DNA of 64,000 nucleotides. Source: Candidatus Omnitrophota bacterium (GTDB lineage Bacteria; Omnitrophota; Gorgyraeia; Gygaellales; UBA12090). The stretch covers positions 74,682 to 138,681 of the forward strand of contig JAUSCZ010000035.1 of NCBI GenBank assembly GCA_030674475.1, read 5' to 3'. Made by a program: the position numbers and the translations under genes. The notes beneath the pieces were generated by a model. It did no database searches. It was not told where the DNA came from and saw only the letters and a program-made list of their open reading frames with translations. Shown here piece after piece: positions 11,581-63,445 of this stretch. Within the stretch, counting starts at the first letter, position 1. Every line of letters starts with the position of its first letter.

Positions 11581-11753
11581 GCTGGCTTGTTAATAATTTC
11601 ACAATCTAAATTTAAATAAAAAATGCTATTTTTGACGCAAACAGCATAACGGTTAAAATAACCCAAAAAACACCGTCTGTCAAGTTAAATCAGTAGGGGT
11701 GTCAAGCCAAATTAGAAATGTCGTATTATTATATTGGGATGACAGTTAAATCA

Positions 11754-11782
11754 GTAGGGGCAGGTTCAGAACCTGCCCCTAC
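11754..11782. repeat. REP-like palindrome variant GTAGGGGCAGGTTCAGAACCTGCCCCTAC overlapping the stop codon of the MiaB-like gene; likely terminator
   Basis: Perfect inverted repeat read from the sequence. Its left arm GTTAAATCAGTAGGGG is duplicated at 11684-11699. Confidence 0.65.
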
Positions 11783-13140
11783 ACTTTTTCCGCGATAAGG
11801 CCGTCTTTGTGGATTTTTAGCGGCCGGGCGGTAACAATTGTATTTACCGCGATTCCCGGCCCCTCAGGGAGAAATACCTTGATATAATTTCCGCTATGGC
11901 TGGGGAAAAATCCATCATCCGCGAAGCCGCCTGGCGATTCAACCAGCACGTCCAGATCCTTACCAATATATTGCCGGCAGAAATCCCGCGCTAATTCCTG
12001 AGCCAATTCCCGCGCCTGCTTTATCCTATCTTTGATAATCTCGGGCCTCACCGTTGCCGGAAATCTCCAAGCGGCTGTATTCTTACGTGGGCTAAAAGGA
12101 AAGATGTGTATCTTTGCCGGGCGGACTTCTCTTAAAAAATTAAGGGTATTCTTAAAATTTTCCTCTTCTTCCCCGGGAAAACCCACCATAATATCGGTAG
12201 TCAACCCGATATCCGGCATAAGCCTCCTCAGCTTAAGGATTAACTCGCGGCAATCTTCAGCTGAGGCCTTGCGGTTCATCAACTTCAATAGTGTATCATC
12301 CCCACTTTGAAAAGAAATATGCAGATGAGGCATCAGCTTCTTAGAGGAAGCCATCTTTTCTGTCAGGCAATCGCGGACATCCAGGGCTTCAATTGAGCTA
12401 AGCCGGATACGCGAAATCCCGTCAATTTCCTCTAAGGCTTCAATAACCCTAAGCAAGCCGTCTTTAAGGCCCAGATCCTTTCCATAAGCGCCTAAGCAAA
12501 TCCCGCAAAGCACTATCTCCTTATAGCCGTTTTCAGCTAAACCTCTGGCTTCCTCAATAATTTCCACTAAAAAGCGGCTGCGGGATGAACCGCGCAATCT
12601 GGGAATTATACAATAAGAACAGCCGTTATCACAACCGTCCTGAACCTTCAGGAATGCCCGGGTGTGCCTATGAAAAGCGCTGATGGTTCGACTACGCTCA
12701 CCATCAATCCTGAGCGAAATCGAAGGACTGATGGTTGGTTTTTTAATACCTGATAACAGTTCAACTCTGGGAAGTAACTGTGTCATTGCGAGGGGTTTTT
12801 CAGTGTTAGCTAAAATAAAATCGGCAAGACGGTCTTTCTCTTGGTTTCCTAAAACCCCTGCCACCCCTTTAAAGCGCTTTAGCTTCTCCGGGTCATTTTC
12901 CGCGGAACAACCGGTAACAAAAACCCGGGCCCGGGGGTGAGAGCGAGAGAGTTTGCGAATCTCCTCTTGAGATAAAGTATCGGCCCTGCGGGTAACCGCG
13001 CAGGTATTCACTATATACACATCCGCGCCGGGTGAATCCTTGCTCTCTTTAAATCCCAGGGCAATCATTCTCTCCCGCAGAACCTGGCTTTCATATTGAT
13101 TAACCTTACAACCTAAAGTTTTAACCTCAAATGTTTTCAT
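11779..13140 (-). CDS. MiaB/RimO-family radical SAM methylthiotransferase (ORF called to 13173; probable start at 13140, MKTFEVKTLGC)
   Basis: N-terminal MTTase cysteines (KTLGCKVNQYES), a radical SAM CSYC motif, and a C-terminal TRAM-like region. Confidence 0.8.
   Translation of the reverse strand: MKTFEVKTLGCKVNQYESQVLRERMIALGFKESKDSPGADVYIVNTCAVTRRADTLSQEEIRKLSRSHPRARVFVTGCSAENDPEKLKRFKGVAGVLGNQEKDRLADFILANTEKPLAMTQLLPRVELLSGIKKPTISPSISLRIDGERSRTISAFHRHTRAFLKVQDGCDNGCSYCIIPRLRGSSRSRFLVEIIEEARGLAENGYKEIVLCGICLGAYGKDLGLKDGLLRVIEALEEIDGISRIRLSSIEALDVRDCLTEKMASSKKLMPHLHISFQSGDDTLLKLMNRKASAEDCRELILKLRRLMPDIGLTTDIMVGFPGEEEENFKNTLNFLREVRPAKIHIFPFSPRKNTAAWRFPATVRPEIIKDRIKQARELAQELARDFCRQYIGKDLDVLVESPGGFADDGFFPSHSGNYIKVFLPEGPGIAVNTIVTARPLKIHKDGLIAEKV
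12680..12732. repeat. in-frame intragenic palindromic element, family A copy 1 (CTGATGGTTCGACTACGCTCACCATCAATCCTGAGCGAAATCGAAGGACTGAT)
   Basis: 52 of 53 nt identical to 13693-13745, which lies inside a different gene and reading frame. Confidence 0.8.
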
Positions 13141-13141
13141 A

Positions 13142-13930
13142 CTATGACGTGAATAAACGCAAAAAGGCCACAACGCTGATTGCCGCGGTATCTACCTTCA
13201 AAACCAAATCTCCCAAAGACGCCCCAATACAACCGTTTTCCTTGGCTGACTTGATTTCCCGTGGGCTAAAATCGCCTTCCGGGCCGATAAAAATTATTAT
13301 TGAGGAGGGCTTAGTGCGCTGTGTAATAAAATCGCAAAAAACCTCTTTTAGGGATTTATTTCCTGGGCCTAAATGCGGAATAACCGCCAGTTCATAATTT
13401 TTTACCTGAGAGACAACTTTACTAAATTCACTGATCGGCTCAATCTCCGGAAGTTTTATCCTGCCGCACTGCTTAGAGGCCTCAACCGCAATCGCCTGCC
13501 AGCGCTTCAGCTTTTCTTTAGCCTTCTCAGGAGAATATTTAACTATGGTTCTTTCAGTCTTTATAGGTATAATCCTATCCACACCCAGATCCACGGTCTT
13601 TTCAATAATATAGTCCATCTTGACTTTCTTAGGCAGGGCGCAGGCTAAAGTGAGAGCTAATTCTGCAGACATAGCTTTTCTGACTTTACCCACTGATGGT
13701 TCGACTACGCTCACCATCAATCCTGAGCGAAGTCGAAGGACTGATAACTCCACCTTATTCTTAGCAATACTATCAATCAGACACTCGTATTCCCGGGACT
13801 TACCGTCAAAAACCAGCACCTGGTCTCCTTTTTTAAGCCGCCTAACCGAAGACAAGTGATGAATCTGGCCGGGGTCTAAAATAGTTATTCTATCCCGGAT
13901 TATATTCGCGCGAGGGCAATAGATACGCAT
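13142..13930 (-). CDS. rsmE: 16S rRNA (uracil1498-N3)-methyltransferase RsmE
   Basis: PUA-like N-terminal domain plus a SPOUT C-terminal domain, ~260 aa. Confidence 0.7.
   Translation of the reverse strand: MRIYCPRANIIRDRITILDPGQIHHLSSVRRLKKGDQVLVFDGKSREYECLIDSIAKNKVELSVLRLRSGLMVSVVEPSVGKVRKAMSAELALTLACALPKKVKMDYIIEKTVDLGVDRIIPIKTERTIVKYSPEKAKEKLKRWQAIAVEASKQCGRIKLPEIEPISEFSKVVSQVKNYELAVIPHLGPGNKSLKEVFCDFITQRTKPSSIIIFIGPEGDFSPREIKSAKENGCIGASLGDLVLKVDTAAISVVAFLRLFTS
13693..13745. repeat. in-frame intragenic palindromic element, family A copy 2
   Basis: Same 53 nt as 12680-12732. Translated in rsmE as SVLRLRSGLMVSVVEPSV, versus ISPSISLRIDGERSRTISA in the MiaB-like gene. Confidence 0.8.
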
Positions 13931-14014: not shown

Positions 14015-16219
14015 TTGGTGTTGTCAATGCTGTCACTTATAATGTCACTCATAATCTTCTGCTTAGGATTAGGTTCGATTATCTCCCAGTTCGTATTTCT
14101 GCGTGAACTGCACACCACCTTCCAGGGAAATGAACTCTCCTTGAGCCTGATATTATTCTCCTGGCTATTTGGTTCCGGAATAGGCGGCCTCTTAGGATTT
14201 TTCTTTTCCTTAAGGAAAAGAAAATCTATCCATTCGAATTACCTCAAAAATTTATTAAGCCTCATCCTGATATTCTCCGCCTTTTGGCTTTTTATCAGCC
14301 TATTCCTCAGCCGCGGCTTAAATCTGTTTCTCTCTATCAGTCCTTTTGAAATACTCCAGCCCGGGCAAATCCTCTTGATTTCAACCATAGTCATAGTCCC
14401 TCAGACAATTACCGTGGGATTATCCTTTATCCTTATCTGCTCAATAATCCAGAATCCCATTAAGGCTTATCTTTTAGAGGCCCTGGGGGCGTTTTTCGCC
14501 GGCCTGTTAAGCCTGATCCTGATAAAATATTTTAACAACTGCCAAATCATCTGGACAATAGCAATAATTTATACCGCATCCGGCCTTCTGCTTTTAAATA
14601 AAAAACTCACATATTATCGGCTCCTGCTAATAATATGGGCCTCCTGCGCTATCTTATCTCTAGCCATGCTTAGCAAGATTGAAGAGAGCACCCAAAATCT
14701 GCGCTTTGGACCTCAAAAACTTATTTACTCTACAGATTCTATCTATGCCAATATCGCGATTGTCAAAAACGCTGAATACTCCTACAGCCTTTATGAAAAT
14801 GGTAAACTCTCTTTCTCAACTGAAGACAGCGAATCAATTGAAGAATGGGCCCATATGCTTTTACTCAGCCACGCCACGCCGCGAAAGATTTTGCTTATCG
14901 GAGGAGGCGTCTCCGGAGTCATCTCCGAAATACTCAAACATCCAATTAAATCTATAGACTATCTGGAGCCGGATAAAAAGCTGATAGAATCTGTCCTAAA
15001 ACATATCCCCCAAAGCGCCTTTTATGGCCTTAGAGATAAAAAAGTAACTATATACAATCAAGACGCCCGGCCTTTCATCAAAGCTGCTTTTACTAAATAC
15101 GACTTAATTATTCTAAATTTAGGCGGCCCCTCCAGCTTGCAGTTAAACCGCTTCTACACCCAGGAGTTCTTTGAAAAGATAAAGAATATTTTAAGCCAAG
15201 AAGGCAGATTCTGTTTTTCTTTTGAATCCAAGGAAGATATCCTCGCCGGACAACTCCTGAAATATAACTCCTGTCTCTATAAAAGCGCTAAATCGGTATT
15301 CCCTTATCTTCAACTTATTCCCGGCGAACGCCTGACCCTCATCGGCTCAAGCGAAAATATCCCTAAAATAAACCCCGAAGAATTAGCCGCGAGATTTAAG
15401 GAAAGAGACATCCAAAGCAAATACTTTACGCCATATCATATCAAGGCAAAACTATTCCGGCAGGAGTATATCCAAAAAAGGCTGGAGGAAAATTTTAACC
15501 TTGCCAGCATAAACCGCGATTATTATCCTTCAGGTTTTTTCTATTATTTAGGCCTGCGGGGAAAACAAAGCTGGTTGAATTTCAACCGGATGTGGGAACT
15601 CTCCGGAAAAATAAAAATGATTTATGGCTTTGGCTGTATGGAAAGCCAAACCATTGCCTTGCTGGCTTACTGGATTGCCACGATGCTAATCCTTGGGGTT
15701 ATTGGACGCAAGAATATCGTTAATTTGTCCGTCTTCTCCAGCGGCTTCTATGGTATCGCCTTAGCAATAATTATCAGCCTGCTCTTTCAGATAAATCTGG
15801 GCTTTCTTTATTACCGCCTGGGAATGATTGTGGCTAATTTTATGTTAGGGCTTTCCTTAGGAGGGATTTTGTTTATATACCTGCGGAAAACAAAGCTATC
15901 CTGGGAAAGGGCGTTATTTTTATCGGAAATAGCCTTAGGAATTATTTCTCTACTGGCCGCGTTTATCTTAAAAGATAACCAACTCACTTATTTCCTGCTT
16001 ACCTTACTGGCGGGAATTATAATCGGCTTTGAATTCGGAATATTCTATAGCCGGAAAAAGACAATTACTATTTATATTTTAGATTTGTCCGGGGCCTGTC
16101 TGGGGAGCCTGTTGACCGGCTTAATCTTTGTTCCGGTATTAGGCATATATAACACCTGTTTACTTATTTCATCCGCCAAGCTTATCACTGCTTTTTTTCT
16201 GAGAATACCAAAGCGCTGA
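14015..16219 (+). CDS. multi-pass membrane protein fused to spermidine synthase-like (PABS) domain
   Basis: Many N- and C-terminal TM helices surround a central LLIGGGVSGV...IDYLEPD aminopropyltransferase-like Rossmann motif. Confidence 0.65.
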   Translation: MVLSMLSLIMSLIIFCLGLGSIISQFVFLRELHTTFQGNELSLSLILFSWLFGSGIGGLLGFFFSLRKRKSIHSNYLKNLLSLILIFSAFWLFISLFLSRGLNLFLSISPFEILQPGQILLISTIVIVPQTITVGLSFILICSIIQNPIKAYLLEALGAFFAGLLSLILIKYFNNCQIIWTIAIIYTASGLLLLNKKLTYYRLLLIIWASCAILSLAMLSKIEESTQNLRFGPQKLIYSTDSIYANIAIVKNAEYSYSLYENGKLSFSTEDSESIEEWAHMLLLSHATPRKILLIGGGVSGVISEILKHPIKSIDYLEPDKKLIESVLKHIPQSAFYGLRDKKVTIYNQDARPFIKAAFTKYDLIILNLGGPSSLQLNRFYTQEFFEKIKNILSQEGRFCFSFESKEDILAGQLLKYNSCLYKSAKSVFPYLQLIPGERLTLIGSSENIPKINPEELAARFKERDIQSKYFTPYHIKAKLFRQEYIQKRLEENFNLASINRDYYPSGFFYYLGLRGKQSWLNFNRMWELSGKIKMIYGFGCMESQTIALLAYWIATMLILGVIGRKNIVNLSVFSSGFYGIALAIIISLLFQINLGFLYYRLGMIVANFMLGLSLGGILFIYLRKTKLSWERALFLSEIALGIISLLAAFILKDNQLTYFLLTLLAGIIIGFEFGIFYSRKKTITIYILDLSGACLGSLLTGLIFVPVLGIYNTCLLISSAKLITAFFLRIPKR

Positions 16220-17864
16220 AAGTATATTTTTCGGTTTTCGCGTCCTTCCAGGAGTCAGCAGGCAAGCCTGCCTTATGAGCGCATAAATTAGAAAGGAACT
16301 CCTCCTTATTCCAGCCGGTCTCTTCAGCCACCTGAGGCAAAAATACCCCCTGGCTCCACCCCCGTTTGATCAACAAACCGTGCGTGCCTAACTGAAACTC
16401 AGCCACATCATCAATCTTTTTTAAAGGCGAGAGGACCGAAATTTCAATCTCAATATCCTTAAGCTCATCCTTGGTTACCGGCTCAAACCGGGGATCTCCG
16501 GTTGCCGACTCTATGGCCATATCCCTGATGGTTTCAAAAAGAGGCTTCTGGCCGATAATATTACCGATACAGCCTTTTAGCTTACCTTGCTTATGGATAG
16601 TTACAAAGGCACCGTTAATAGCCTTTAGCTGAGGATCATCTTCGCTAAAATCTAATTTTTTCCCGCTGGTTACATATTCCTGAATAGTCTTACGGGCAAT
16701 CTCCAGTAATCGCGCTTTCTGCGTATCATTCAACATAACTGTTTCTCCTGTCTTATCCTTATTAATTAAAGCTGATAAATACCCCACAGTCCACACCCCT
16801 TTTATCTTTTTACCGGAAACCTTAGCGGAATTAGTATGCCCCAAAAACTTTATTTGATTATAGCCTAAGCTTTGCGCGGTAAGTATCGCGCTGACCACCG
16901 GCAATCCCCCGCACATCTGGATTGAACCGTCTTTTAACTTCGCGTAAATATCCTGGGCAGACCCCGTTAGAAGCCTCTTACCGCTTTCAGATTGCTCCCC
17001 AGCTTCTAACGGGGCAGGCATCTTCCCTAAATAGGACAAAGTCAGCTTATCTACTCTCTCGGTTTCCTGGTAGTCATAACTGTGGCAAAGGTCCGTGGAA
17101 GCAATCAGCAACACATCTGAACGGCCCGCGATGGCTTTATTTAATATATCCGCCAAAACATTTAAACCGTGAAGGTCCGCGTCTCCAATCAAAATGGGAA
17201 CTATCTTAAAATCATCCAGGGTCTTTTGTAAGAAAGGAAGCTGAACCTCAATGGAATGTTCTTTTTCAAAAGCCTGAGGGATAAAGCTAATATTTTGGGA
17301 AGGAGAAATTATTTTTTGCGTAAAATCAGAGTCTACTTCTAGGTCTCCCAGGGGGGTTTGGAACTTACCGGATGGATATACTGAGACTCCCTTAAAATAA
17401 TACTGGTGACTGGGCCCCAGGAGGACCACGGTTTTATAAGGACGGCCTTTAATTAACTTATAGCCCAAGGCGGCGGTCGGCCCGGAGAAATCATAGCCGG
17501 CATGGGGAGAAATCAAACAAAATATTTCGCCTGTGGTGAGCGGTGGGTTGGCCGCGTTAAGCAGGTTTTCAACTTTATGGCTAAGCTCATCTTTATCCGC
17601 GGGATAAAACTGCCCGGCCACATTCGGTTTTTTTATCTCCTCGCCAAAGCTTAGGACATTAAAGCCAAAAAGCGCTCCCCCAAAAAAAAGGAAAAAAACA
17701 ATTGCTGTCCCTACTTTTCTCTTTGAAAAAAAGGAACTTCCCCCTTTCGTAAAGGGGGATGGAGGGGGATTTTCTAGGTTAGGGGAAATTTGGGAGCATT
17801 TACACAATGCACTAAGCCCAGATTCCGGCGATTGTTTCCTGACAAAACTTGCAATGCCCATCAA
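16185..17864 (-). CDS. AmmeMemoRadiSam system fusion protein: Memo1-like (protein B) plus AMMECR1 (protein A) domains, with N-terminal hydrophobic segment; start codon uncertain
   Basis: The Memo-like core is ISPHAGYDFSG...LCHSYDY. The AMMECR1 core is GAFVTIHKQGKLKGCIGNI...DPRF. A radical SAM partner is adjacent. Confidence 0.7.
   Translation of the reverse strand: MMGIASFVRKQSPESGLSALCKCSQISPNLENPPPSPFTKGGSSFFSKRKVGTAIVFFLFFGGALFGFNVLSFGEEIKKPNVAGQFYPADKDELSHKVENLLNAANPPLTTGEIFCLISPHAGYDFSGPTAALGYKLIKGRPYKTVVLLGPSHQYYFKGVSVYPSGKFQTPLGDLEVDSDFTQKIISPSQNISFIPQAFEKEHSIEVQLPFLQKTLDDFKIVPILIGDADLHGLNVLADILNKAIAGRSDVLLIASTDLCHSYDYQETERVDKLTLSYLGKMPAPLEAGEQSESGKRLLTGSAQDIYAKLKDGSIQMCGGLPVVSAILTAQSLGYNQIKFLGHTNSAKVSGKKIKGVWTVGYLSALINKDKTGETVMLNDTQKARLLEIARKTIQEYVTSGKKLDFSEDDPQLKAINGAFVTIHKQGKLKGCIGNIIGQKPLFETIRDMAIESATGDPRFEPVTKDELKDIEIEISVLSPLKKIDDVAEFQLGTHGLLIKRGWSQGVFLPQVAEETGWNKEEFLSNLCAHKAGLPADSWKDAKTEKYTFSALVFSEKKQ
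16961..17019. repeat. in-frame intragenic palindromic element, family B copy 1 (ACCCCGTTAGAAGCCTCTT...CTTCTAACGGGGCAGGC)
   Basis: About 85% identical to 35410-35470. Encodes MPAPLEAGEQSESGKRLLTGS in the middle of the Memo-AMMECR1 protein. Confidence 0.75.
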
Positions 17865-18954
17865 TAAGATTATTTACGGTAACACTATAGCCGACCCTGA
17901 CCAATAAGGCCTGAGCGCATTTTGGGCAAAAGGTGGTCTCGCCCTGATGTCCGGGGACATTCCCGATATAGGCGTATTTAAGGCCGGCCTTCTTAGCCAA
18001 GCTTTGAGCTTTCTCTAAAGTTGCCACTGGGGTCGGGGCTAAATTCGCCAGCTTATACATCGGCCAAAAGCGGGAAAAATGTATTGGCGTGTCCGGACCC
18101 AAGTTATCCCTTATCCATACGCACATCTCCTCCATCTCTTCTGAAGAATCATTTAACCCGGGTAAAACCAGATTAGTCAGTTCTAAGTGCACCTTTTCTT
18201 CTTTGATTATCTTTAAGGTTTGGAGGATATTCTCTAAATTTCCAAAACAAATATCTTCATAGTATTTCTGGCGGAAGGCCTTTAAGTCAATGTTAGCCGC
18301 GTCCAAATGTTTACAGAGATTGCGCAGGGGCTCTTCATTGATGAAGCCGGCGGAATGCATTATATTCTTAAGGCCGCTTGAGCGGGCCAAGGCCGCGGTA
18401 TCCAGCATATACTCATAAAAAATAGTCGGCTCGGTATAGGTATAGGCGACAGTCTGGGAGCCGGACTCTTTGGCCTGTTTAACTATATCTTGCGAACTAA
18501 GAAAAACCGGCTGAACATCCTCGGGCTTGCTTTGAGAAATCTCCCAGTTCTGGCAGAATTTGCACCTTAAATTACATCCGGCGGTGGCGATGGAAAATGC
18601 GGATGTCGCGGGAAGAAAATGAAAAAGCGGCTTTTTCTCTATCGGGTCAATATGCACTGCCGCCGCCTGAGAATGCACCAGGGTATATAAAACCCCCTGA
18701 TTATTTTCCCTCACCCCGCAAAAGCCTCTCTGCTTCTCAGTTATCAGGCATTTACGCGGACAAAGCTGACATTGCAGAGACTTTTCGTCTATGGGCTTCC
18801 AATATAAAGCCTTACTTTTATCTAAAGAGGCCCAAGCCGATTGAATCTTATCCGCGCCCAAACCCAAAAGGCCCATTCCCCCGCTTATCACAACCACCTG
18901 TTTTAAAAAATCTTTTCTGGTCATCATAATCGTTTTGGGGTCAGACCTCAACAA
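17812..18954 (-). CDS. AmmeMemoRadiSam system radical SAM enzyme with Tat-like N-terminal signal peptide
   Basis: CPRKC...C and CNLRCKFCQNWEIS clusters. The N-terminus MMTRKDFLKQVVVISGGMGLLGLGA...AWA resembles a twin-arginine signal (RK variant). Confidence 0.7.
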   Translation of the reverse strand: MLRSDPKTIMMTRKDFLKQVVVISGGMGLLGLGADKIQSAWASLDKSKALYWKPIDEKSLQCQLCPRKCLITEKQRGFCGVRENNQGVLYTLVHSQAAAVHIDPIEKKPLFHFLPATSAFSIATAGCNLRCKFCQNWEISQSKPEDVQPVFLSSQDIVKQAKESGSQTVAYTYTEPTIFYEYMLDTAALARSSGLKNIMHSAGFINEEPLRNLCKHLDAANIDLKAFRQKYYEDICFGNLENILQTLKIIKEEKVHLELTNLVLPGLNDSSEEMEEMCVWIRDNLGPDTPIHFSRFWPMYKLANLAPTPVATLEKAQSLAKKAGLKYAYIGNVPGHQGETTFCPKCAQALLVRVGYSVTVNNLIDGHCKFCQETIAGIWA

Positions 18955-19005
18955 TAGAAACTAACTTCTAAGGTTGAGGTCTACTAACTTCTAAGGTTGA
19001 GGTCT
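18935..19005. terminator. 16-bp inverted repeat GGGGTCAGACCTCAAC ... GTTGAGGTCTGACCCC enclosing a 20-nt direct duplication
   Basis: Read from the sequence; lies downstream of the pilin gene at 19040-19495. Confidence 0.6.
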
Positions 19006-19039
19006 GACCCCTAATTTTCCTAATTTTCTAATTTTCTTT

Positions 19040-19495
19040 TTACCAGGAATAATCCGCGATTGTTTCTCCGTCGGTAATGTTTATAGAAATAACACCGGGA
19101 TCTGTTCCGCCTTTTTTATGTTTCCCACGTAAGCGCGCCGCGGTGGCAGTTGCTCTGGCAGCTAGCCCCGTGCCGCTGACTCCGGTTACCGCATATTCCC
19201 AGTCAGCGTTATTATAAATATCCACATTCAAAGTTGACCTTGCGGTATTACCGTTATTGTCTGACCCAAAAGTGGCAGAAGTATAGTTATTATTATCAAT
19301 CTTGTACATCTGCTCAGCACTGCGGATAGTTCCCAGAGCAGTCTTGGCTTCTTTTTTGTGCATTTCGTCAACTGTTTTATTGTAAAGAGGCATGGCAATA
19401 GCTGTTACTATGGCTACAATTATCAGGGTAACCATAATCTCCATTATGGTAAAGCCGACCACGGATATACTGTTAAGGGTTCTTGGTTTATTCAT
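19040..19495 (-). CDS. type IV pilin / pseudopilin (prepilin-type N-terminal methylation domain)
   Basis: GFTIMEIMVTLIIVAIV N-terminal hydrophobic helix following a short leader. Confidence 0.75.
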   Translation of the reverse strand: MNKPRTLNSISVVGFTIMEIMVTLIIVAIVTAIAMPLYNKTVDEMHKKEAKTALGTIRSAEQMYKIDNNNYTSATFGSDNNGNTARSTLNVDIYNNADWEYAVTGVSGTGLAARATATAARLRGKHKKGGTDPGVISINITDGETIADYSW

Positions 19496-19728
19496 TGCGG
19501 GTAATATTTAAAAGAGGAGATTAAATCAAGCGGATTTAGCAGTAATTTTACCTGGGAAAGATAACTAATGCGCCGTAAAATTAGTTTTTAGTGGTAAAAC
19601 TGTCGTTTTGAACAATAGAACAATCAGAACATTAGACCGCAATTGAGTTTTTGTTTGTCTATTGTTCTATTGTCTATTGCTCAATTGCTCTGCGCGCTGT
19701 CATATTAAAAATTAATTGGACAGCGCGC

Positions 19729-19804
19729 TGGTGGACCCGAGCGGGATCGAACCGCTGACCTCTACAATGCGAATGTAGCGTTCTCCCAGCTGAACTACGG
19801 GCCC
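19729..19804 (-). tRNA. tRNA-Ala (anticodon CGC), CCA encoded
   Basis: Hand-folded cloverleaf: acceptor GGGCCCG/CGGGTCC with the G3-U70 Ala identity pair, anticodon stem CTACA/TGTAG with loop TTCGCAT, and a TTCGATC T-loop. Confidence 0.85.
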
Positions 19805-19839
19805 GCGGGAAAAAAGTCTAAGAATAGAATTTAAGGCGG

Positions 19840-20253
19840 CTAAGGACAACTCACCGCAGAACAACTTGCACAACCAGCGCCAGTCTTACTGGTCGTGCCG
19901 TTCTCATACATGTTTATAGTATAGTTGGTAGTGCCACAGGGATTTTTTTCCGAATTTCTTAGCGCCCGAGCTACAACAGTATTCGCAGACTCATCAACTA
20001 CCGTATAGGTAAAATAGGTGCCATTGGTAGTATTGTCAATATCTAAATTATCAAAACTATTAGTATAATTCCCGTTTTCTAAATAATAGCGCGTCTGGGC
20101 GCCGCGGATAGCGGCTAAGTTGGTTAGGGCTTCGCTCTGGCGGGAGCGCTCCACGGTTTTGGTATACTGGGGTATGGCCAGGGCGGACAGGATGCCAATG
20201 ATCACCACCACTACCACCAGTTCGATTATATTAAAGCCGGAATTTTTATTCAT
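19840..20253 (-). CDS. type IV pilin / pseudopilin
   Basis: GFNIIELVVVVVIIGILSALAIPQY prepilin N-terminus. Confidence 0.75.
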   Translation of the reverse strand: MNKNSGFNIIELVVVVVIIGILSALAIPQYTKTVERSRQSEALTNLAAIRGAQTRYYLENGNYTNSFDNLDIDNTTNGTYFTYTVVDESANTVVARALRNSEKNPCGTTNYTINMYENGTTSKTGAGCASCSAVSCP

Positions 20254-20257
20254 TTTT

Positions 20258-20327
20258 ACCCCTCCCCGCCTCCCCTTGCTAAGGGGAGGATTTCTTGTCG
20301 TAGGGGCGGGTTCGAACCCGCCCCTAC
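20258..20327. repeat. composite intergenic element: SD-sequestering hairpin module (CCCCTCCCCGCCTCCCCTTGCTAAGGGGAGGATTTCTT) plus REP palindrome GTAGGGGCGGGTTCGAACCCGCCCCTAC
   Basis: Fills the whole 76-nt intergenic gap and ends 4 nt from the pilin ATG. Copies occur at 37752-37821, 38456-38495 and 59380-59424, with related arms at 26623-26760. Confidence 0.8.
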
Positions 20328-20329
20328 TA

Positions 20330-20725
20330 TTAGAATCCCATTCTTTTAATCACCTCGGTCTGCGCGGAATCAAACTGGCCGGACTTATTCCGGGTGGCGA
20401 TCAATTCACAATTGCCGTCATCAATTAACCTTATCCGGTAACTCCAGCCGGAGTTAGAGCTTTTTTTACCCAGGGCATCTTTTAGCCCCGGAGCTTCAGT
20501 AGCCAGCTCGTCAATTGTAGAGGCGTATTTGCCGTATATGCCGCGATACATTGTCTGAATCTGCCCTAAGTAAGACAAGTTGGACTCAACCTTGGTCAGC
20601 GCGGTTTTATCCATCAGCTTAAAGTAATGTGGCATAGCCAAAAACCACAAGATCACAATGAGCACCGCCAGGACCGTTAGTTGTAACGACCTCTGACCTT
20701 TATCCTGAGAGCTGTCTTCGGGCAT
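20330..20725 (-). CDS. hypothetical small membrane protein, degenerate pilin-like
   Basis: Single TM segment (LTVLAVLIVILWFLAMP) followed by a small beta-rich domain, located within the pilin operon. Confidence 0.4.
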   Translation of the reverse strand: MPEDSSQDKGQRSLQLTVLAVLIVILWFLAMPHYFKLMDKTALTKVESNLSYLGQIQTMYRGIYGKYASTIDELATEAPGLKDALGKKSSNSGWSYRIRLIDDGNCELIATRNKSGQFDSAQTEVIKRMGF

Positions 20726-20753
20726 AAAAGTTTAGTTAAGCACTATCAAATGG

Positions 20754-21149
20754 TTACCACGGAATAGCAGTACTATTATAAGTTAAGTTTCCATCATTCG
20801 TGATATTCATATACTCACCGGCGTAAACCCCTTTTAACCTCTTAGCTGCTGCGGTGAATGTCTCGTTATTATTACCCATACTACCTATAGTATAGTTCCA
20901 CTCAGGCGAAGTACTTAGTCTTAATATTTCCGGAACCTCCACAGCTAACGCTGTCGTATTATCAGTATACCTTGACTCCAAAGTAAAATATGTTGCCTCA
21001 GCCTTGCGAATCATATTCAAGGCATTTTTGGCTGTAGAACCATGGCCTCTTTCCATAAACCTGGTATATTGGGGCAAGGCCAGGGCGGCCATAATGGCGA
21101 TAATGATAACCACGGTAATTAACTCAATCAAAGTAAAACCTTTCTTCAT
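20754..21149 (-). CDS. type IV pilin / pseudopilin
   Basis: MKKGFTLIELITVVIIIAIMAALALPQY, a canonical prepilin N-terminus. Confidence 0.8.
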   Translation of the reverse strand: MKKGFTLIELITVVIIIAIMAALALPQYTRFMERGHGSTAKNALNMIRKAEATYFTLESRYTDNTTALAVEVPEILRLSTSPEWNYTIGSMGNNNETFTAAAKRLKGVYAGEYMNITNDGNLTYNSTAIPW

Positions 21150-21238
21150 TTTATCCTCCTTAATTTGTAGGGACAGAACAATGTTCTGTCCCTACCTTAG
21201 CCTTGGCCTTAACCTTCGCAATTATTTACTATTACTAA

Positions 21239-22477
21239 TCAATTAGAACCGATGGTGGCTAATTTGAATATCGGCAAAAACATTGATACTACCATTGAAC
21301 CTATGGTGGCGCCCATCACCACTATCATAATCGGCTCAAACATCGAGGCGAAACGGGTAATCTGAGTCTCCATAATCTCGGCGTAATAAGTGGCGATTTT
21401 CTTGAACATCTTATCCAAGTCGCCCACCTCCTCACCGATGTTGATCATCTGGGTAACCATGGGCGGGAAAAACGCGCTTTCATCCAGCGGCTGGGTCAGG
21501 GTCCTCCCCTCGCGCACCGCGTTCTTTACGCTACGGATAATCTTAGCTACAATCACCGTGCCGGCGGACTTCTCGGCGATTTCCAGGGCATAGAGTATGG
21601 GCACCCCGGACTCTAAGAGGGTGGCCATAGTAGAGGAAAATCTCTCGGTCTCGGCCAGGCGCAGATATTCCTTAATCACCGGAAATTTAAACATCAAATT
21701 ATCAAAGAACGCCTTACCGTTGGTAGTCTGGCGGAATTTTATTATCGCGATAATTATACCAACTATCAAGACCGAAAGCAACAAAAAATTACCCCGCAAA
21801 AAGTCACTGGTGGCAATCAACAGTTTGGTGGGCACGGGAAGCTCAATGTCAAAATTAGAGAAAATCTCGGTGAACTTGGGGATTACCGCCAGGATAAAAA
21901 TTACTACCGCTCCCGCCGCTACGGCAACTAAAATTATAGGATAGACCATGGCCGAGACAATCTTCCTCTGAAAGGCGGCCCGCCTTTCCAAATAACCGGC
22001 CAGCCTCTCTAATATTGTCGGCAGGTTACCGGAAGCCTCCCCGGTTTCAATAAGATTAATCCAAAGGTTAGAAAAAACCCGGGAATGTTTGGCCAGGGAA
22101 TCGCGGAAACTGAAACCCGACTCCACGTCATAGCTTATTTTGGTTACTACATCATGGAATTTCCGGGAGGGTATCTGGCGCAGGATTGAACCTAAGCTCT
22201 TTAGAAGCGGCACCCCTGAATCTAAGGATATGGCCAGCTGGCGGGCAAAAACCGTGAGATCGTCGGCCTTTATCCCGCTGTGGGAGAATTTATGGCCTTT
22301 GGCTTTTTGCGGGGTATGCTTGGCGCTTTTGGCCGGGACATCAGCCTGAACCTTAATGCCCGTAACAAATAACCCCCGCAACTGCAGCCGGGCAATCAGG
22401 TCGTCGGCGGTATCCGCTTCTTCGCTGGCCGCTATACGTTCGCCGCTGGCGTTCCGGGCGGCATAGATAAATCGCAT
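21239..22477 (-). CDS. pilC: type IV pilus / T2SS inner-membrane platform protein (PilC/GspF family)
   Basis: ~410 aa with two GspF-like repeats and three TM segments. Confidence 0.8.
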   Translation of the reverse strand: MRFIYAARNASGERIAASEEADTADDLIARLQLRGLFVTGIKVQADVPAKSAKHTPQKAKGHKFSHSGIKADDLTVFARQLAISLDSGVPLLKSLGSILRQIPSRKFHDVVTKISYDVESGFSFRDSLAKHSRVFSNLWINLIETGEASGNLPTILERLAGYLERRAAFQRKIVSAMVYPIILVAVAAGAVVIFILAVIPKFTEIFSNFDIELPVPTKLLIATSDFLRGNFLLLSVLIVGIIIAIIKFRQTTNGKAFFDNLMFKFPVIKEYLRLAETERFSSTMATLLESGVPILYALEIAEKSAGTVIVAKIIRSVKNAVREGRTLTQPLDESAFFPPMVTQMINIGEEVGDLDKMFKKIATYYAEIMETQITRFASMFEPIMIVVMGATIGSMVVSMFLPIFKLATIGSN

Positions 22478-26611: not shown

Positions 26612-26622
26612 AGTCTTTACCC

Positions 26623-26760
26623 GTAGGGGCGGGTTCGAACCCGCCCCTACCCCCGATAAGGGGAGGATTTCTTTCCGCCTGCCCCGCCAGCGGCGGTGGC
26701 CTCCCCCTGATAAAGGAAGTTTTCTTATCCCCTCCTTTACAAGGAGGGGTAGGGGAGGTA
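26623..26760. repeat. composite repeat: REP palindrome GTAGGGGCGGGTTCGAACCCGCCCCTAC followed by several CCCC/GGGGAGG-type hairpins
   Basis: Read directly from the sequence. Sits in the intergenic region between the PilM-like stop (26766) and the PilO-like start (26611). Confidence 0.75.
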
Positions 26761-28641: not shown

Positions 28642-28758
28642 AATCTGCCTCTGGCGCTTAGATTTTACTTGATTCTGAGCTCTGCGAAGAATCTTAAGGA
28701 ACAATCTGCCTCTGGCGCTTAGATTTTACTTGATTCTGAGCTCTGCGAAGAATCTTAA
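28642..28758. repeat. two tandem 61-bp direct repeats (AATCTGCCTCTGGCGCTTAGATTTTACTTGATTCTGAGCTCTGCGAAGAATCTTAA...), motif AGATTTTACTTG present 3 times
   Basis: Read from the sequence. Lies upstream of the excisionase-like gene, so these are candidate operator/iteron sites or a small RNA. Confidence 0.7.
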
Positions 28759-35054: not shown

Positions 35055-35473
35055 TGGTCACATCCAGTTCTATTAATAAGGCCGCCTTGGTTAGTAATAG
35101 TCATATTCCTACCACTACAGGCCAAACCGGAAACCGCGCGGGTAGCCGTGGCAGTAAAGCTTGGGCTGGTGGTGGCGTTAATAGAATAAGTAAAACTGTC
35201 TCCTTCTAAATCAATCCCTAAATTCTCAGTATCATTAGTATACTCTCCCTCGTTCAAATAATACCTCTGCTGGGCAGAGTAGATTAATTGCAGGTTAGCC
35301 TCGGCTTCTTTGGCCTTATTTTTCTCTGAAGATCGGCTAAAATTACCCATATTCAGGCTAACCAAAATCCCGATAATTACCAAAACCACCAGCAACTCAA
35401 TCATAGTAAACCCCGTTAGAAGCCTCTTGCCTCTTACAGGTTGCTCATTAACTTCTAACGGGGCAGGCCCCAT
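35048..35473 (-). CDS. type IV pilin with 21-aa leader (ORF track starts at TTG 35485; ATG at 35473 has an AGGAGA SD upstream)
   Basis: ...GKRLLTG|FTMIELLVVLVIIGILVS prepilin cleavage/methylation site. Confidence 0.7.
   Translation of the reverse strand: MGPAPLEVNEQPVRGKRLLTGFTMIELLVVLVIIGILVSLNMGNFSRSSEKNKAKEAEANLQLIYSAQQRYYLNEGEYTNDTENLGIDLEGDSFTYSINATTSPSFTATATRAVSGLACSGRNMTITNQGGLINRTGCDQW
35410..35470. repeat. family B palindromic element copy 2, encoding the pilin leader peptide
   Basis: About 85% identical to 16961-17019. The CCCCGTTAGAAG / CTTCTAACGGGG arms are an inverted repeat. Confidence 0.75.
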
Positions 35474-37345: not shown

Positions 37346-37747
37346 TTAATCCCGGTCGGTGGCGATATTTACCTGTTCAACCCCTAAATCCCGGGCCATA
37401 TCCCAGACCTCAACCACCCGGCCCAGCCTTGCTCCCTGATCCGCCATAATCAAAACCGGGCGTTTGGTTTTCTTGGCCTCATTAAGAACAATCTTAATCT
37501 CTTTGGCAGTTAAAACCTTTTTATCCAAATAAATGACATTTTCCCGGCTGATAGTAATAATAATGGTGTCTCCTTCGCTGGCCTCCGCGCTTACCGCCTT
37601 GGGTAGATTCACCTTGATTCCCGACTGCACGATAAAACTTGAGGTCAGCATAAAAAATATCAAAAGCTGAAACACCATATCTATCAAAGGGGTAATATCA
37701 ATCTGGCGCAGGCCATGCTCCAATTCCATATGTCTTTTAAAGCGCAT
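37346..37747 (-). CDS. exbD: biopolymer transport protein ExbD/TolR
   Basis: Single TM segment (IDITPLIDMVFQLLIFFMLTS) plus a periplasmic domain; 133 aa. Confidence 0.85.
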   Translation of the reverse strand: MRFKRHMELEHGLRQIDITPLIDMVFQLLIFFMLTSSFIVQSGIKVNLPKAVSAEASEGDTIIITISRENVIYLDKKVLTAKEIKIVLNEAKKTKRPVLIMADQGARLGRVVEVWDMARDLGVEQVNIATDRD

Positions 37748-37751
37748 TTTT

Positions 37752-37821
37752 ACCCCTCCCCGCCTCCCTTTGTTAAGGGGAGGATTTCTCCCCGTAGGGG
37801 CGGGTTCGAACCCGCCCCTAC
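37752..37821. repeat. composite intergenic element (SD-hairpin module plus REP palindrome) between exbB stop and exbD start
   Basis: ACCCCTCCCCGCCTCCCTTTGTTAAGGGGAGGATTTCTCCCCGTAGGGGCGGGTTCGAACCCGCCCCTAC. The exbB stop codon TAG lies inside the palindrome. Confidence 0.8.
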
Positions 37822-38450
37822 TCCGTAAGGAAATTGACTAATTCGGTTGCCGCTTTTTCCATCTCTAAAATCACGGAGTTAACCCGGCCTACCAGGTAAT
37901 TATAAGTGATAAAAGCCGGTATGGCCACCACCAGGCCTGCCACCGTGGTTAAAAGCGCCTCCCAAATTCCCCCGGCCAGGTCTCCCGGGCTGACCGGGTG
38001 GCTGGCGGTAGACTTGACTTGAATAGTATTAAAACAAGTAACCATTCCGGTAACCGTGCCTAAAAGCCCTAAAAGAGGGGCAATGTGGGCAATGGTGGCC
38101 AAAACGTTTAAATTCTTTTCTAATATCGGTATCTCATACAAAGAGGCGTCTTCAATAGCCTCCTTAATATCCTGACGGCTCCTGCCATGCTTTAGTATCC
38201 CGGCCTTTAAAATCTGGCCTACCGGGCTTAAGGTTTTATCACAGTCATAAATTGCCTCTTTTATCTTCTGTTGTTTTAACTTCTCCAATACATTCCTCAG
38301 GAAATAAGTAGAATTTATTTTTATCTTTCTCAGATACCACAATTTCTCTATAGTTATTGCCAGGGCCCATATTGAACTGATAAGTATGGGCCACATAACC
38401 GGCCCGCCAGCCAAAAAAAGCTTCCAAAAATTCATCTGCCAGATATTCAT
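37818..38450 (-). CDS. exbB: MotA/TolQ/ExbB proton-channel family protein
   Basis: Three TM helices with a conserved ExbB core (GLLGTVTGMV). Confidence 0.85.
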   Translation of the reverse strand: MNIWQMNFWKLFLAGGPVMWPILISSIWALAITIEKLWYLRKIKINSTYFLRNVLEKLKQQKIKEAIYDCDKTLSPVGQILKAGILKHGRSRQDIKEAIEDASLYEIPILEKNLNVLATIAHIAPLLGLLGTVTGMVTCFNTIQVKSTASHPVSPGDLAGGIWEALLTTVAGLVVAIPAFITYNYLVGRVNSVILEMEKAATELVNFLTE

Positions 38451-38455
38451 TTTCT

Positions 38456-38495
38456 TACCCCTCCCCGCCTCCCCTTGTTAAGGGGAGGATTTTTT
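38456..38495. repeat. SD-hairpin module copy (CCCCTCCCCGCCTCCCCTTGTTAAGGGGAGGATTTTTT) directly upstream of exbB ATG
   Basis: Read from the sequence; this copy has no REP palindrome attached. Confidence 0.8.
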
Positions 38496-38499
38496 GCCT

Positions 38500-38640
38500 C
38501 CAACAAGTTATTAAACTCTAAATCCTAAATTCTAAACTCGAAACCCTAAACAAATCCCAAACCCAAAACATTATATTTTTAGTTTTGAGTTTATGATTTT
38601 GCCTGCCTGCCGGCAGGCAGGAGTTTGTTTAGGATTTAGG
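38500..38640. terminator. large inverted-repeat region (CTAAATCCTAAA... / ...TTTAGGATTTAGGG arms around the perfect palindrome GCCTGCCTGCCGGCAGGCAGG)
   Basis: Read from the sequence; lies downstream of the TPR gene stop. Confidence 0.55.
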
Positions 38641-58243: not shown

Positions 58244-59379
58244 TAGTTATATTTCGCGTTTATCCTGATATATTCCGGGGTCAGGTCTGAAGTGTAAACT
58301 ACGGCCTTACCTCTGCCAAGTCTTAAATCTATCTTGACTATTATATCCTTTTTCCGGAAAGAATCACCCTCTATTTTTATTTTTTCTCTTACCTCTACCC
58401 CGGATGCCCCCACCGCCGCCACTATCCTTCCCCAGTTAGCGCCTCCGCCGTAAACAGCGGTCTTGAAAAGATTGGAATTGGCCACGGCCAAAGCCGCTTT
58501 TTTAGCCTGCGTATTATCCTTGGCTCCGGATACCTGAATAGTTATAAACTTGCTGGCTCCTTCAGCATCCAAAATAATCATCTTGGCTAAACCCAGGCAA
58601 ATTTCACTTAAGGCAGTTTTAAATTTAGAAAAATTACGCGTGCCTAAACAGACTTTCTTGTTTTCCGCTAACCCGTTAGCCAAAATAATCACGCTGTCAT
58701 TAGTGCTCATACATCCGTCAATAGTAATCATATTAAAAGAATATTCAACTGCCTGCTTCAAGGCCTCTTTTAATGCCGAATACTCGATCAAGACATCCGT
58801 AGTGATAAAGCAAAGCATCGTAGCCATATCCGGAGCAATCATTCCCGCGCCCTTGGCAATTGCCCCGATAGTTACTTTTTTTCCGCCTATCTCTAACTCC
58901 CGCGCTAAGGCCTTGGGCTTAGTATCGGTAGTCATTATAGCCTGGGCTGTCTTATTACCGCTGCTTCTATCTAAAGAGCCAACCAAAGACGGCAAGGCCT
59001 TCTTTATCTTGGAGAAATCAAGCGGACGGCCAATAATTCCGGTTGAGGCAACCAGCACCATTTTTTTATCTATTCCCAACAACTCCGCGCTAAGGCAGGT
59101 GGTGTTCTTGGCCGTTTCCATTCCCGGCTTTCCGGTATAGCAATTAGCATTCCCACTGTTGACTATTATAGCTTGGGCTTTTTTTGATTTCAGATATTCC
59201 CGGCAAAGCTCAACCGGAGCCGCGGCAAACTTATTTTTGGTAAACATACCACAGGCGGATGCCGGGACATCGGAATATATCAAAGCCAAATCCAGGCCGC
59301 TGGATTTCTTTATCCCCGCCTCTATTGCCTGAGATCTAAACCCCTTAGCCAGGGTTATAGCGTTTTTATACTCTTTCAT
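58243..59379 (-). CDS. argJ: bifunctional ornithine acetyltransferase / N-acetylglutamate synthase
   Basis: ATMLCFITTD autoproteolytic site region. Confidence 0.85.
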   Translation of the reverse strand: MKEYKNAITLAKGFRSQAIEAGIKKSSGLDLALIYSDVPASACGMFTKNKFAAAPVELCREYLKSKKAQAIIVNSGNANCYTGKPGMETAKNTTCLSAELLGIDKKMVLVASTGIIGRPLDFSKIKKALPSLVGSLDRSSGNKTAQAIMTTDTKPKALARELEIGGKKVTIGAIAKGAGMIAPDMATMLCFITTDVLIEYSALKEALKQAVEYSFNMITIDGCMSTNDSVIILANGLAENKKVCLGTRNFSKFKTALSEICLGLAKMIILDAEGASKFITIQVSGAKDNTQAKKAALAVANSNLFKTAVYGGGANWGRIVAAVGASGVEVREKIKIEGDSFRKKDIIVKIDLRLGRGKAVVYTSDLTPEYIRINAKYN

Positions 59380-63303: not shown

Positions 63304-63370
63304 AGATTAAACTATATTGGAGAATGATAATGTTGTCAAATAGTTTTTGTGTATCTATAAGGTATTCAAT

Positions 63371-63445
63371 TTGTTATGTAAAGCGTCTTCTTAAAACTTT
63401 AAAAATTTGTTATGTAAAGCGTCTTCTTAAACTTTTAAATTTTAA
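63371..63445. repeat. tandem direct repeat (AATTTGTTATGTAAAGCGTCTTCTTAAAACTTTAAA x2) upstream of the transposase gene
   Basis: Read from the sequence. Confidence 0.7.

Follow-up and report, generated by a model that had tools for sequence, protein, structure and literature searches.

A fused Memo-AMMECR1 protein and a radical SAM partner with export-type N-termini in an Omnitrophota genome

Does the AmmeMemoRadiSam system encoded at this locus act inside the cytoplasm, or could it act on the other side of the membrane? The locus lies in the window, by which we mean the whole stretch of 64,000 nucleotides (nt) analysed here, and its principal genes encode a fused Memo-AMMECR1 protein, a radical S-adenosylmethionine (SAM) enzyme and a convergently transcribed membrane protein (MDO8749089.1, MDO8749090.1 and MDO8749088.1, all on one 190,996-bp contig of an Omnitrophota metagenome-assembled genome (MAG)). 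The conservation of Memo and AMMECR1 extends from archaea to humans, and both are linked to human disease. To our knowledge, no biochemical function is known for either of them, and their radical SAM partner in prokaryotes is uncharacterised. Every part of the system in the window carries an export-type signal, export itself being a prediction, and we judge it fairly probable that the system is an extracytoplasmic variant of AmmeMemoRadiSam. Localisation and topology were predicted by motif rules and the positive-inside rule, and all of the work was computational. The features that carry the argument are given below, with the signals named after the twin-arginine translocation (Tat) and the general secretory (Sec) pathways.

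17812..18927, minus strand: gene of the AmmeMemoRadiSam radical SAM enzyme, 371 amino acids, start ATGATG, identical to NCBI MDO8749090.1
18829..18927, minus strand: Tat-like signal peptide MMTRKDFLKQVVVISGGMGLLGLGADKIQSAWA, with the RK motif at 18901-18921, followed by ↓SLDKSKALYW
16185..17861, minus strand: Memo+AMMECR1 fusion gene, corresponding to NCBI MDO8749089.1, most likely start ATG 17861
17643..17714, minus strand: hydrophobic (h-) region and cleavage region of a Sec-type signal, VGTAIVFFLFFGGALFGFNVLSFG↓EEIKKPNVAG, in frame and with the site pattern of 113 homologues
16767..17633, minus strand: Memo (protein B) domain, TIGR04336 and PF01875, amino acids 78-366
16203..16712, minus strand: AMMECR1 (protein A) domain, TIGR04335 and PF01871, amino acids 385-554

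The sequence-only reading of this DNA had proposed that Memo and AMMECR1 were fused in one open reading frame (ORF) with the radical SAM partner next to it, and profile searches bore out both proposals at the positions given there. The ORF at 16185..17864 (-) matched TIGR04336/Memo at amino acids 78-366 (233.1 bits, cutoff 26) and TIGR04335/AMMECR1 at amino acids 385-554 (185 bits, cutoff 99), so that the domain order is B then A, while the adjacent ORF at 17812..18954 (-) matched TIGR04337 with 386.8 bits (cutoff 220). The Memo residues H120, H152, H202, D257, H260 and C317, numbered on the 558-amino-acid product that starts at ATG 17861, were invariant in 67 homologues. The AMMECR1 domain keeps its LxGCIG motif, and its relatives in the PDB are 1ZQ7 and 1VAJ. 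In the radical SAM enzyme, a multiple alignment revealed invariant or nearly invariant cysteine motifs at C53/56/60/70, C118/122/125 and C334/337/359/362, with CxxxCxxC present as CNLRCKFC at amino acids 118-125. Both genes are intact and all family-defining motifs are kept.

The hydrophobic N-terminal segment that had been noticed in the fusion protein, VGTAIVFFLFFGGALFGFNVLSFG, was confirmed in frame at 17643-17714 and recurred in 113 of 120 fusion homologues (52-91% identity), which have at least 20 residues before PNVAG. In these 113, a basic n-region leads into a run without charges, 19 residues long at the median, and a cleavage-type site follows at a fixed distance of 6 amino acids from PNVAG. 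Position -1 of this site was A in 82, G in 14, S in 8 and T in 4 (108/113 together), position -2 was F or Y in 87, and position -3 was C in 40, S in 20, A in 19, G in 15, V in 8 and L in 7 (109/113). The pattern of this putative site is that of classical signal peptidase I. The window protein itself reads ...SKRK-VGTAIVFFLFFGGALFGFNVL-SFG↓EEIKKPNVAG, with the basic n-region, the h-region of 15-20 residues and the small residues at -3 and -1 that are expected of a Sec substrate of signal peptidase I; the hydrophobicity of its h-region is 2.61, and an AlphaFold2 model places a helix at residues 48-67 with a low-confidence linker after it.

Whether this segment is translated depends on the start codon. 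Three in-frame starts lie 5' of it (TTG 17864, ATG 17861 and TTG 17807), and the next one 3' of it is GTG 17621 (codon 17619-17621), within the first Memo motif NVAGQFYP. NCBI annotates the fusion from this GTG as a protein of 478 amino acids, and one gene caller yields the 558-amino-acid product. In relatives that lack a 5' insertion described below, the fusion ORF begins at the equivalent ATG, 50 nt within the radical SAM gene. In the window, ATG 17861 likewise overlaps the 3' end of the radical SAM gene by 50 nt, and this overlap therefore suggests that the two genes are translationally coupled. The sequence-only reading was open to the objection that the true starts might lie downstream. 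The GTG chosen by NCBI does lie there, yet the objection very probably fails, because both the signal and EIKKPN, which is 5' of the GTG, are conserved at the protein level among homologues of 52-91% identity; the TIGR04336 profile match also starts 4 residues ahead of the GTG. The public annotation appears to be about 80 codons short, so that it lacks both the conserved signal peptide and the beginning of the Memo profile. Downstream starts were considered and were rejected on grounds of conservation.

The radical SAM gene most likely starts at ATGATG 18927: NCBI holds the exact 371-amino-acid product with the start MMTRK, and M(M)TRK is the N-terminus of close homologues too. This N-terminus consists of MMTRKDFLK, a weak h-region and AWA. 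It had been read as a Tat-like TRKDFLK-hydrophobic-AWA signal, and such a segment does lie at 18829-18927, in register with the RR signals of relatives, though its own motif is RK and not RR. In the multiple alignment, TRKDFLK shares columns with the [ST]RRxFL motifs of relatives; T-R-K-D-F-L-K keeps 6 of the 7 positions of the consensus S/T-R-R-x-F-L-K and lacks the consecutive arginines that homologues have there. The h-region QVVVISGGMGLLGLGA is followed by DKIQS and then by AWA↓S, so that the weak h-region, the basic residue of the c-region and the AxA site of Tat signals are all found. Its hydrophobicity of 2.02 agrees with the median of Tat-type N-termini (1.84) and not with that of the Sec/anchor type (2.93). 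Furthermore, T-R-K-x-F-L-K is kept across cluster representatives of 63-91% identity, and about 110 of 119 radical SAM homologues have an N-terminal signal; with the 113 of 120 among the fusion homologues, this recurrence speaks against chance. Within Omnitrophota, it is the clade of the window that retains the Tat-like RK form. Judged by this alignment, the Tat-like signal of the window is homologous to real twin-arginine signals.

The same architecture was found far beyond the window. When 1.84 billion cluster representatives were searched for homologues of the radical SAM protein, 1574 clusters matched at E <=1e-30. Among the best 150 of these, about 28 begin with canonical motifs (e.g. SRRDFIKK, TRREFLQQ, TRRDFLGA and SRREFLKA), which precede a Gly/Ala-rich h-region and stand about 40-60 residues ahead of the first cysteine motif, and about 70 have no extension and begin with MKEAxFY. 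A scan of GTDB with one genome per species gave 80 loci at >=43% identity, all in MAGs, which span Omnitrophota, Acidobacteriota, Planctomycetota, Desulfobacterota, Ignavibacteriota, Bacteroidota, Poribacteria, KSB1, Verrucomicrobiota, Altiarchaeota and Aenigmatarchaeota, among others. A simple rule sorted their radical SAM N-termini into 47 RR, 10 RK/KR, 13 other hydrophobic and 10 without a signal, and the 47 is a minimum, as the rule overlooked RR signals in 2-3 of the last 10. A Memo gene lay within 6 kb of the radical SAM gene in 38 GTDB loci; it was fused to AMMECR1 in 37 of these 38 and had a hydrophobic signal in at least 33. Among the fusion homologues, the 120 best all combine the two Pfam domains. 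In other phyla the fusion partners frequently have lipoboxes, such as LVPGC, FLVGC, IPLGC, LTQGC and IAGSC. Signals are absent from two Bacteroidales loci where the fusion is present (L071, L076) and from the radical SAM proteins of three archaeal loci (L068, L079, L080).

In a neighbour-joining tree of 242 radical SAM cores, one clade was signal-less in 92 of its 95 leaves, and the other leaves fell into clades in which 84-96% bear signals. By these counts, the fusion and its predicted signals are the norm in a large, multi-phylum and tree-coherent subfamily that is distinct from the classic signal-less form. On this distribution, the signal-bearing fusion form is genuine, of ancient origin and by no means confined to the window. 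The idea that fusion and signals were unusual did not hold, therefore, as far as this subfamily is concerned; the objection that they might be the norm in characterised family members does not apply as worded, since no member is characterised. A finding restricted to Omnitrophota had also been considered and was rejected on the multi-phylum GTDB loci. One protein of 854 amino acids (P0235; 11 member sequences, 3 contigs) carries radical SAM, Memo and AMMECR1 in a single polypeptide with a hydrophobic N-terminus, and could be a genuine triple fusion or else the product of read-through across the overlapping genes.

A third gene recurs with these two. When the ORFs within 5 kb of the radical SAM genes were clustered, the commonest neighbour was the homologue of a membrane protein that is encoded convergently to the fusion gene in the window:

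14042..16219, plus strand: membrane protein of 14 transmembrane helices with a central domain of spermidine-synthase (SpeE) fold, NCBI MDO8749088.1 'hypothetical protein', convergent with the fusion gene

This homologue was present in 43 of the 80 related loci; by profile search, 41 of the 71 loci with signals have it, as do 2 of the 9 classed as signal-less. Of the two exceptions, L037 has a lipobox-bearing fusion and L012 has two radical SAM genes, one of RR type, and none of the 7 truly signal-less loci has the homologue. The gene order radical SAM, fusion, convergent SpeE-like gene, RsmE, MiaB-like recurs in one relative (L001). In MDO8749088.1 a PF01564 domain stands between two hydrophobic halves, and the AlphaFold2 model (predicted local distance difference test (pLDDT) score 89.8, predicted template modelling (pTM) score 0.89) consists of 7 helices, a SpeE-fold domain at about amino acids 226-530 and again 7 helices. 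Foldseek placed this domain in the SpeE fold, with target template modelling (TM) scores of 0.70-0.77 among the top matches listed and a best E of about 1e-11. In the loops of 59 homologues, lysines plus arginines averaged 20.1 on the side where both termini lie and 8.5 on that of the SpeE-like domain, with the same direction in 59 of 59, and because of this positive-inside bias the SAM-binding-fold domain is predicted to be periplasmic.

From SpeE structures, GGGDG is known as the loop for decarboxylated SAM and DxxDP as the catalytic motif, with one Glu that binds the ribose and one Asp that binds the adenine. The consensus of the SpeE-like family has GGGVSG in place of GGGDG and N-L-P-x-P in place of DxxDP, and keeps the Glu and the Asp. 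MDO8749088.1 probably binds an adenosyl compound and is probably no aminopropyltransferase. The membrane polyamine aminopropyltransferases and 'fused MFS/spermidine synthase' proteins (NF002956, NF037959) resemble it in joining transmembrane helices to a SpeE fold. However, they match it weakly and differ from it in their motifs and in that its soluble domain is predicted to be periplasmic; its NCBIfam scores of 30-114 bits all fell below the curated cutoffs (40-472), those of the SpeE equivalogs included. We regard MDO8749088.1 as a candidate for a further component of the radical SAM system.

Other partners recur in the relatives. In 16 loci, a DUF362 protein that itself has an RR signal was found near the radical SAM gene; DsbD_2 membrane proteins were found there in 8, and proteins with DsbD_2, FMN_bind and Fer4_5 (NosR/NapH-like) in 4. 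Some radical SAM domains are fused directly behind DsbD_2 six-helix, NosR/NapH-like, or signal plus beta-propeller modules. Such arrangements suggest dedicated membrane electron-transfer partners, and they are independent hints of a location outside; the NosR/NapH-like fusions P0241, P0242 and P0254 were taken only as a link to membrane redox modules. A tblastn search of the window found no DUF362, DsbD_2 or NosR/NapH-like gene and no fused module of this kind. The examples in relatives are:

P0246, P0263, P0254, P0241, P0245: partner modules in proteins of relatives
L008:5588-6238, L026:1744-3432, L025:4824-5885: partner modules at loci of relatives

The fusion gene was also said to carry one mobile-element insertion and a hairpin in its 5' region. 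Both were seen, but the insertions are two:

17718..17813, minus strand: 96-nt in-frame insertion in the n-region of the signal, directly after the radical SAM stop, with the hairpin CCCCCTTTacgAAAGGGGG at 17740-17758
16962..17018, minus strand: 57-nt in-frame palindromic element (family D9) encoding PAPLEAGEQSESGKRLLTG, within the Memo domain

By DNA alignment, the 96-nt insertion is missing from the relatives L085 and L086; P0122, P0124 and P0125 have versions of it that vary but keep the frame open. It adds 32 residues to the n-region and leaves KRK next to the h-region, and the region at amino acids 11-47 is predicted to be disordered (pLDDT <50). It is only loosely like the C-rich hairpin families D1/D2, and we do not claim membership; when more copies of the CCCCCTTT/AAAGGGGG hairpin were sought by pattern, only the one was found, which is insignificant on its own. 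The D9 element is present in the fusion genes of P0122, P0123 and P0125 and missing from those of P0124, P0128 and P0129, and forms a disordered loop (pLDDT <50, amino acids 285-299) between two confident helices. As a repeat, this D9 copy spans 16961-17019; a second one, 86% identical, lies at 35410-35468 in the leader peptide of a pilin gene (GPAPLEVNEQPVRGKRLLTG↓FTMIELL). In the models, both insertions sit in disordered regions and would seem to be tolerated. Rickettsia palindromic elements (RPEs) are short palindromic repeats inserted in frame in protein genes. The elements of the window, of 57-96 nt, resemble them in being short palindromic repeats that lie in frame, in surface or disordered regions and in unrelated genes, with repeated copies and a presence that varies among relatives, and differ from them in phylum and in sequence. 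Two copies of another family (D10), 98% identical, lie at 12680-12732 and 13693-13745 inside the MiaB-like radical SAM gene and the RsmE gene. Additional inserts occur elsewhere in close relatives of the fusion gene, and one of these matches the element of the MiaB-like and RsmE genes.

If the system works outside the cytoplasm, the radical SAM enzyme would fold and receive its iron-sulfur (Fe-S) clusters in the cytoplasm and then cross the membrane in the folded state through its Tat-type RK signal (TRKDFLK...AWA↓S). The fusion protein would be exported unfolded by Sec and cut by signal peptidase I after SFG, 6 residues before the Memo core. The two might then come together on the outer side of the cytoplasmic membrane and act on a membrane-embedded or envelope substrate rather than on a cytoplasmic one such as RNA. 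More speculatively, the SpeE-like neighbour with its 7+7 helices would belong to the same module and either deliver SAM or use SAM on the same substrate; alternatively, and equally as speculation, the radical SAM enzyme could carry bound SAM out with it and use it catalytically. The fullest form of this picture would be a multi-phylum periplasmic radical SAM machine, made of a Tat-exported radical SAM enzyme, a Sec-exported or lipoprotein fusion and a 14-helix SpeE-fold protein that brings SAM or SAM-derived chemistry outside, with electrons supplied in some lineages by DsbD_2 or NosR/NapH-like proteins. We offer it tentatively, as a possibility that is rather doubtful as a whole.

Several points weigh against the extracytoplasmic reading. 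The motif of the window is RK instead of the canonical RR, no obvious Shine-Dalgarno sequence precedes the start of the fusion gene, and about half of the Tat-type radical SAM loci have no Memo or AMMECR1 gene within 6 kb. A regular-expression search for TatA/TatC motifs gave no match in the 64-kb window, which is uninformative at that size. We are aware of nothing in the periplasm that would supply SAM or a low-potential reductant, nor of a mechanism of cluster insertion for an Fe-S enzyme exported by Sec. Moreover, most other radical SAM homologues in Omnitrophota have a long and very hydrophobic N-terminal helix of Sec/anchor type with no Tat signal. This speaks for the main rival, according to which the N-terminal segments are uncleaved anchors that hold the enzymes on the cytoplasmic face, so that the chemistry, SAM and the reductant would be cytoplasmic and only the substrate, a lipid for example, would be in the membrane; so does the expectation that an Fe-S enzyme would not come through Sec export intact. 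As an analogue, reductive dehalogenases with N-terminal transmembrane helices in place of a Tat signal have been proposed (PMC6797604). However, the positive charges ahead of the hydrophobic segment predict an orientation with the N-terminus in and the C-terminus out, RR motifs with AxA sites dominate among the relatives, the fixed signal peptidase I site or lipobox of the partner fusion implies translocation, and the soluble domain of the SpeE-like neighbour is predicted outside too. We consider anchoring on the cytoplasmic face unlikely.

The RK motif may also be read as local decay, in which RR turned into RK, the 96-nt insertion disrupted the signal of the fusion protein, and what is left is a relic that is no longer exported or functional. 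The closest relatives share RK in place of RR, and the fusion gene has indeed taken up two elements. Single changes from R to K, however, slow Tat export and do not always abolish it. The retention of T-R-K-x-F-L-K at 63-91% identity argues for constraint, the ORFs are intact with all catalytic residues kept, and the insertions are in frame and in disordered regions, with KRK still beside the h-region, so that decay seems to us quite improbable. The last rival would remove the signals altogether by placing the true starts downstream (e.g. at GTG 17621) and leaving the hydrophobic stretches untranslated. The 478-amino-acid NCBI protein and the lack of a clear Shine-Dalgarno sequence before ATG 17861 are what it can draw on, but EIKKPN, the h-region and the cleavage site are conserved as protein in more than 110 homologues, several relatives keep the frame open across an insertion that varies, the TIGR04336 match begins 4 residues before the GTG, and NCBI's own start for the radical SAM protein is MMTRK. 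We regard this explanation as very improbable.

How does the system of the window compare with known ones? The classic AmmeMemoRadiSam system (TIGR04335/TIGR04336/TIGR04337), which we take to have been described by comparative genomics only, shares with it the three families above their cutoffs, the cysteine motifs, the His/Cys site of Memo, LxGCIG and the adjacency of the genes. NCBI likewise names the proteins of the window as members of these families. Burroughs et al. 2019 (JBC 294:10211; PMC6664185; cited in PMC7159879) reportedly analysed the contexts of Memo, AMMECR1 and the radical SAM enzyme. In the classic form, A and B are separate, there is no N-terminal extension and the radical SAM protein starts with M[KR]EAxFY (e.g. 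L068, L079, L080), whereas the system of the window has A and B fused, an export-type N-terminus on every protein, a separate clade in the tree and a different conserved neighbour. Separate and signal-less A and B are typical and not defining, and the fused form is common. Tat-exported Fe-S proteins (hydrogenase small subunits, DmsA/B-type proteins, Rieske proteins and reductive dehalogenases) are alike in their S/T-R-R-x-F-L-K signal, which is RR in the relatives, and in cytoplasmic cluster loading, and differ from the radical SAM protein of the window in that its motif is RK. We know of no radical SAM enzyme among the Tat substrates and of none that works outside the cytoplasm. For the TIGR04337 family we found no solved structure; the nearest is that of pyruvate formate-lyase activating enzyme (PDB 3C8F), a marginal match (E = 1e-4), which shares the radical SAM core with CxxxCxxC and has neither the N-terminal Cx2Cx3Cx9C, nor the C-terminal CxxC...CxxC, nor a signal peptide. 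A literature search found no biochemically characterised member of the family, with AmmeMemoRadiSam mentioned only in passing; it also found no periplasmic, exported or secreted radical SAM enzyme and no link between AMMECR1 and the periplasm, and Burroughs et al. 2019 may already note secreted versions.

If the extracytoplasmic reading is right, the system would provide the first case of radical SAM chemistry beyond the cytoplasm and would point to a membrane or envelope substrate for Memo and AMMECR1. The predicted export signals on all components of the subfamily would rule out cytoplasmic substrates such as RNA and would narrow the search to membrane lipids or the envelope. It would also challenge the view that radical SAM enzymes, which need SAM and a low-potential reductant, stay in the cytoplasm. 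Candidate routes of supply are Tat export of the cofactor-loaded enzyme, the SAM-binding domain of the SpeE-like protein if it faces outward, and electron modules of DsbD_2 or NosR type. No cultivated carrier was among the 80 GTDB loci; the RR-type loci occur in phyla that do have cultivated members (Acidobacteriota, Planctomycetota, Desulfobacterota and Bacteroidota, among others), and a cultivated carrier would allow experiments.

Several repeats and neighbouring genes were noted besides. The first two entries below give the positions of palindromic or hairpin elements between genes, the others tandem repeats and the cluster directly upstream of the radical SAM gene.

18937..19011, no strand assigned: palindromic element in the gap that separates the pilin gene upstream from the radical SAM start, with 16-nt arms GGGGTCAGACCTCAAC / GTTGAGGTCTGACCCC
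20251-20328, 37745-37822, 38450-38527, 59373-59450, 26620-26679 and 11751-11784: sites of the intergenic families D1, D2 and D5
28642-28758: perfect tandem duplication with a 56-nt unit and a spacing of 61 nt
63368-63439: tandem 36-nt repeat
19040-22477, minus strand: cluster like those of type IV pili or type II secretion systems, with 4 pilin-like genes that have N-methylation motifs and a GspF/PilC gene

The element at 18937-19011 contains an internal 22-nt direct repeat, AGACCTCAACCTTAGAAGTTAG x2, and might serve as a terminator or be one more mobile element. The D1/D2/D5 families consist of a GC hairpin GTAGGGGCGGGTTCGAACCCGCCCCTAC, then a CCTCCCCTT/AAGGGGAGG hairpin and then GGGGAGGGGTAAAA. 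At two sites such an element stands directly 5' of the ATG of a gene, one for a pilin and one for an ExbD-like protein, and the families may represent a shared 5' leader or regulatory element in which a Shine-Dalgarno-like G-run is paired in a hairpin. The pilus cluster is interrupted by a tRNA-Ala(CGC) gene at 19729-19804, and many homologues on other contigs have mis-called N-termini, MGERYIRIVEVSGSNPLGST, which are the translation of a tRNA gene of that type.

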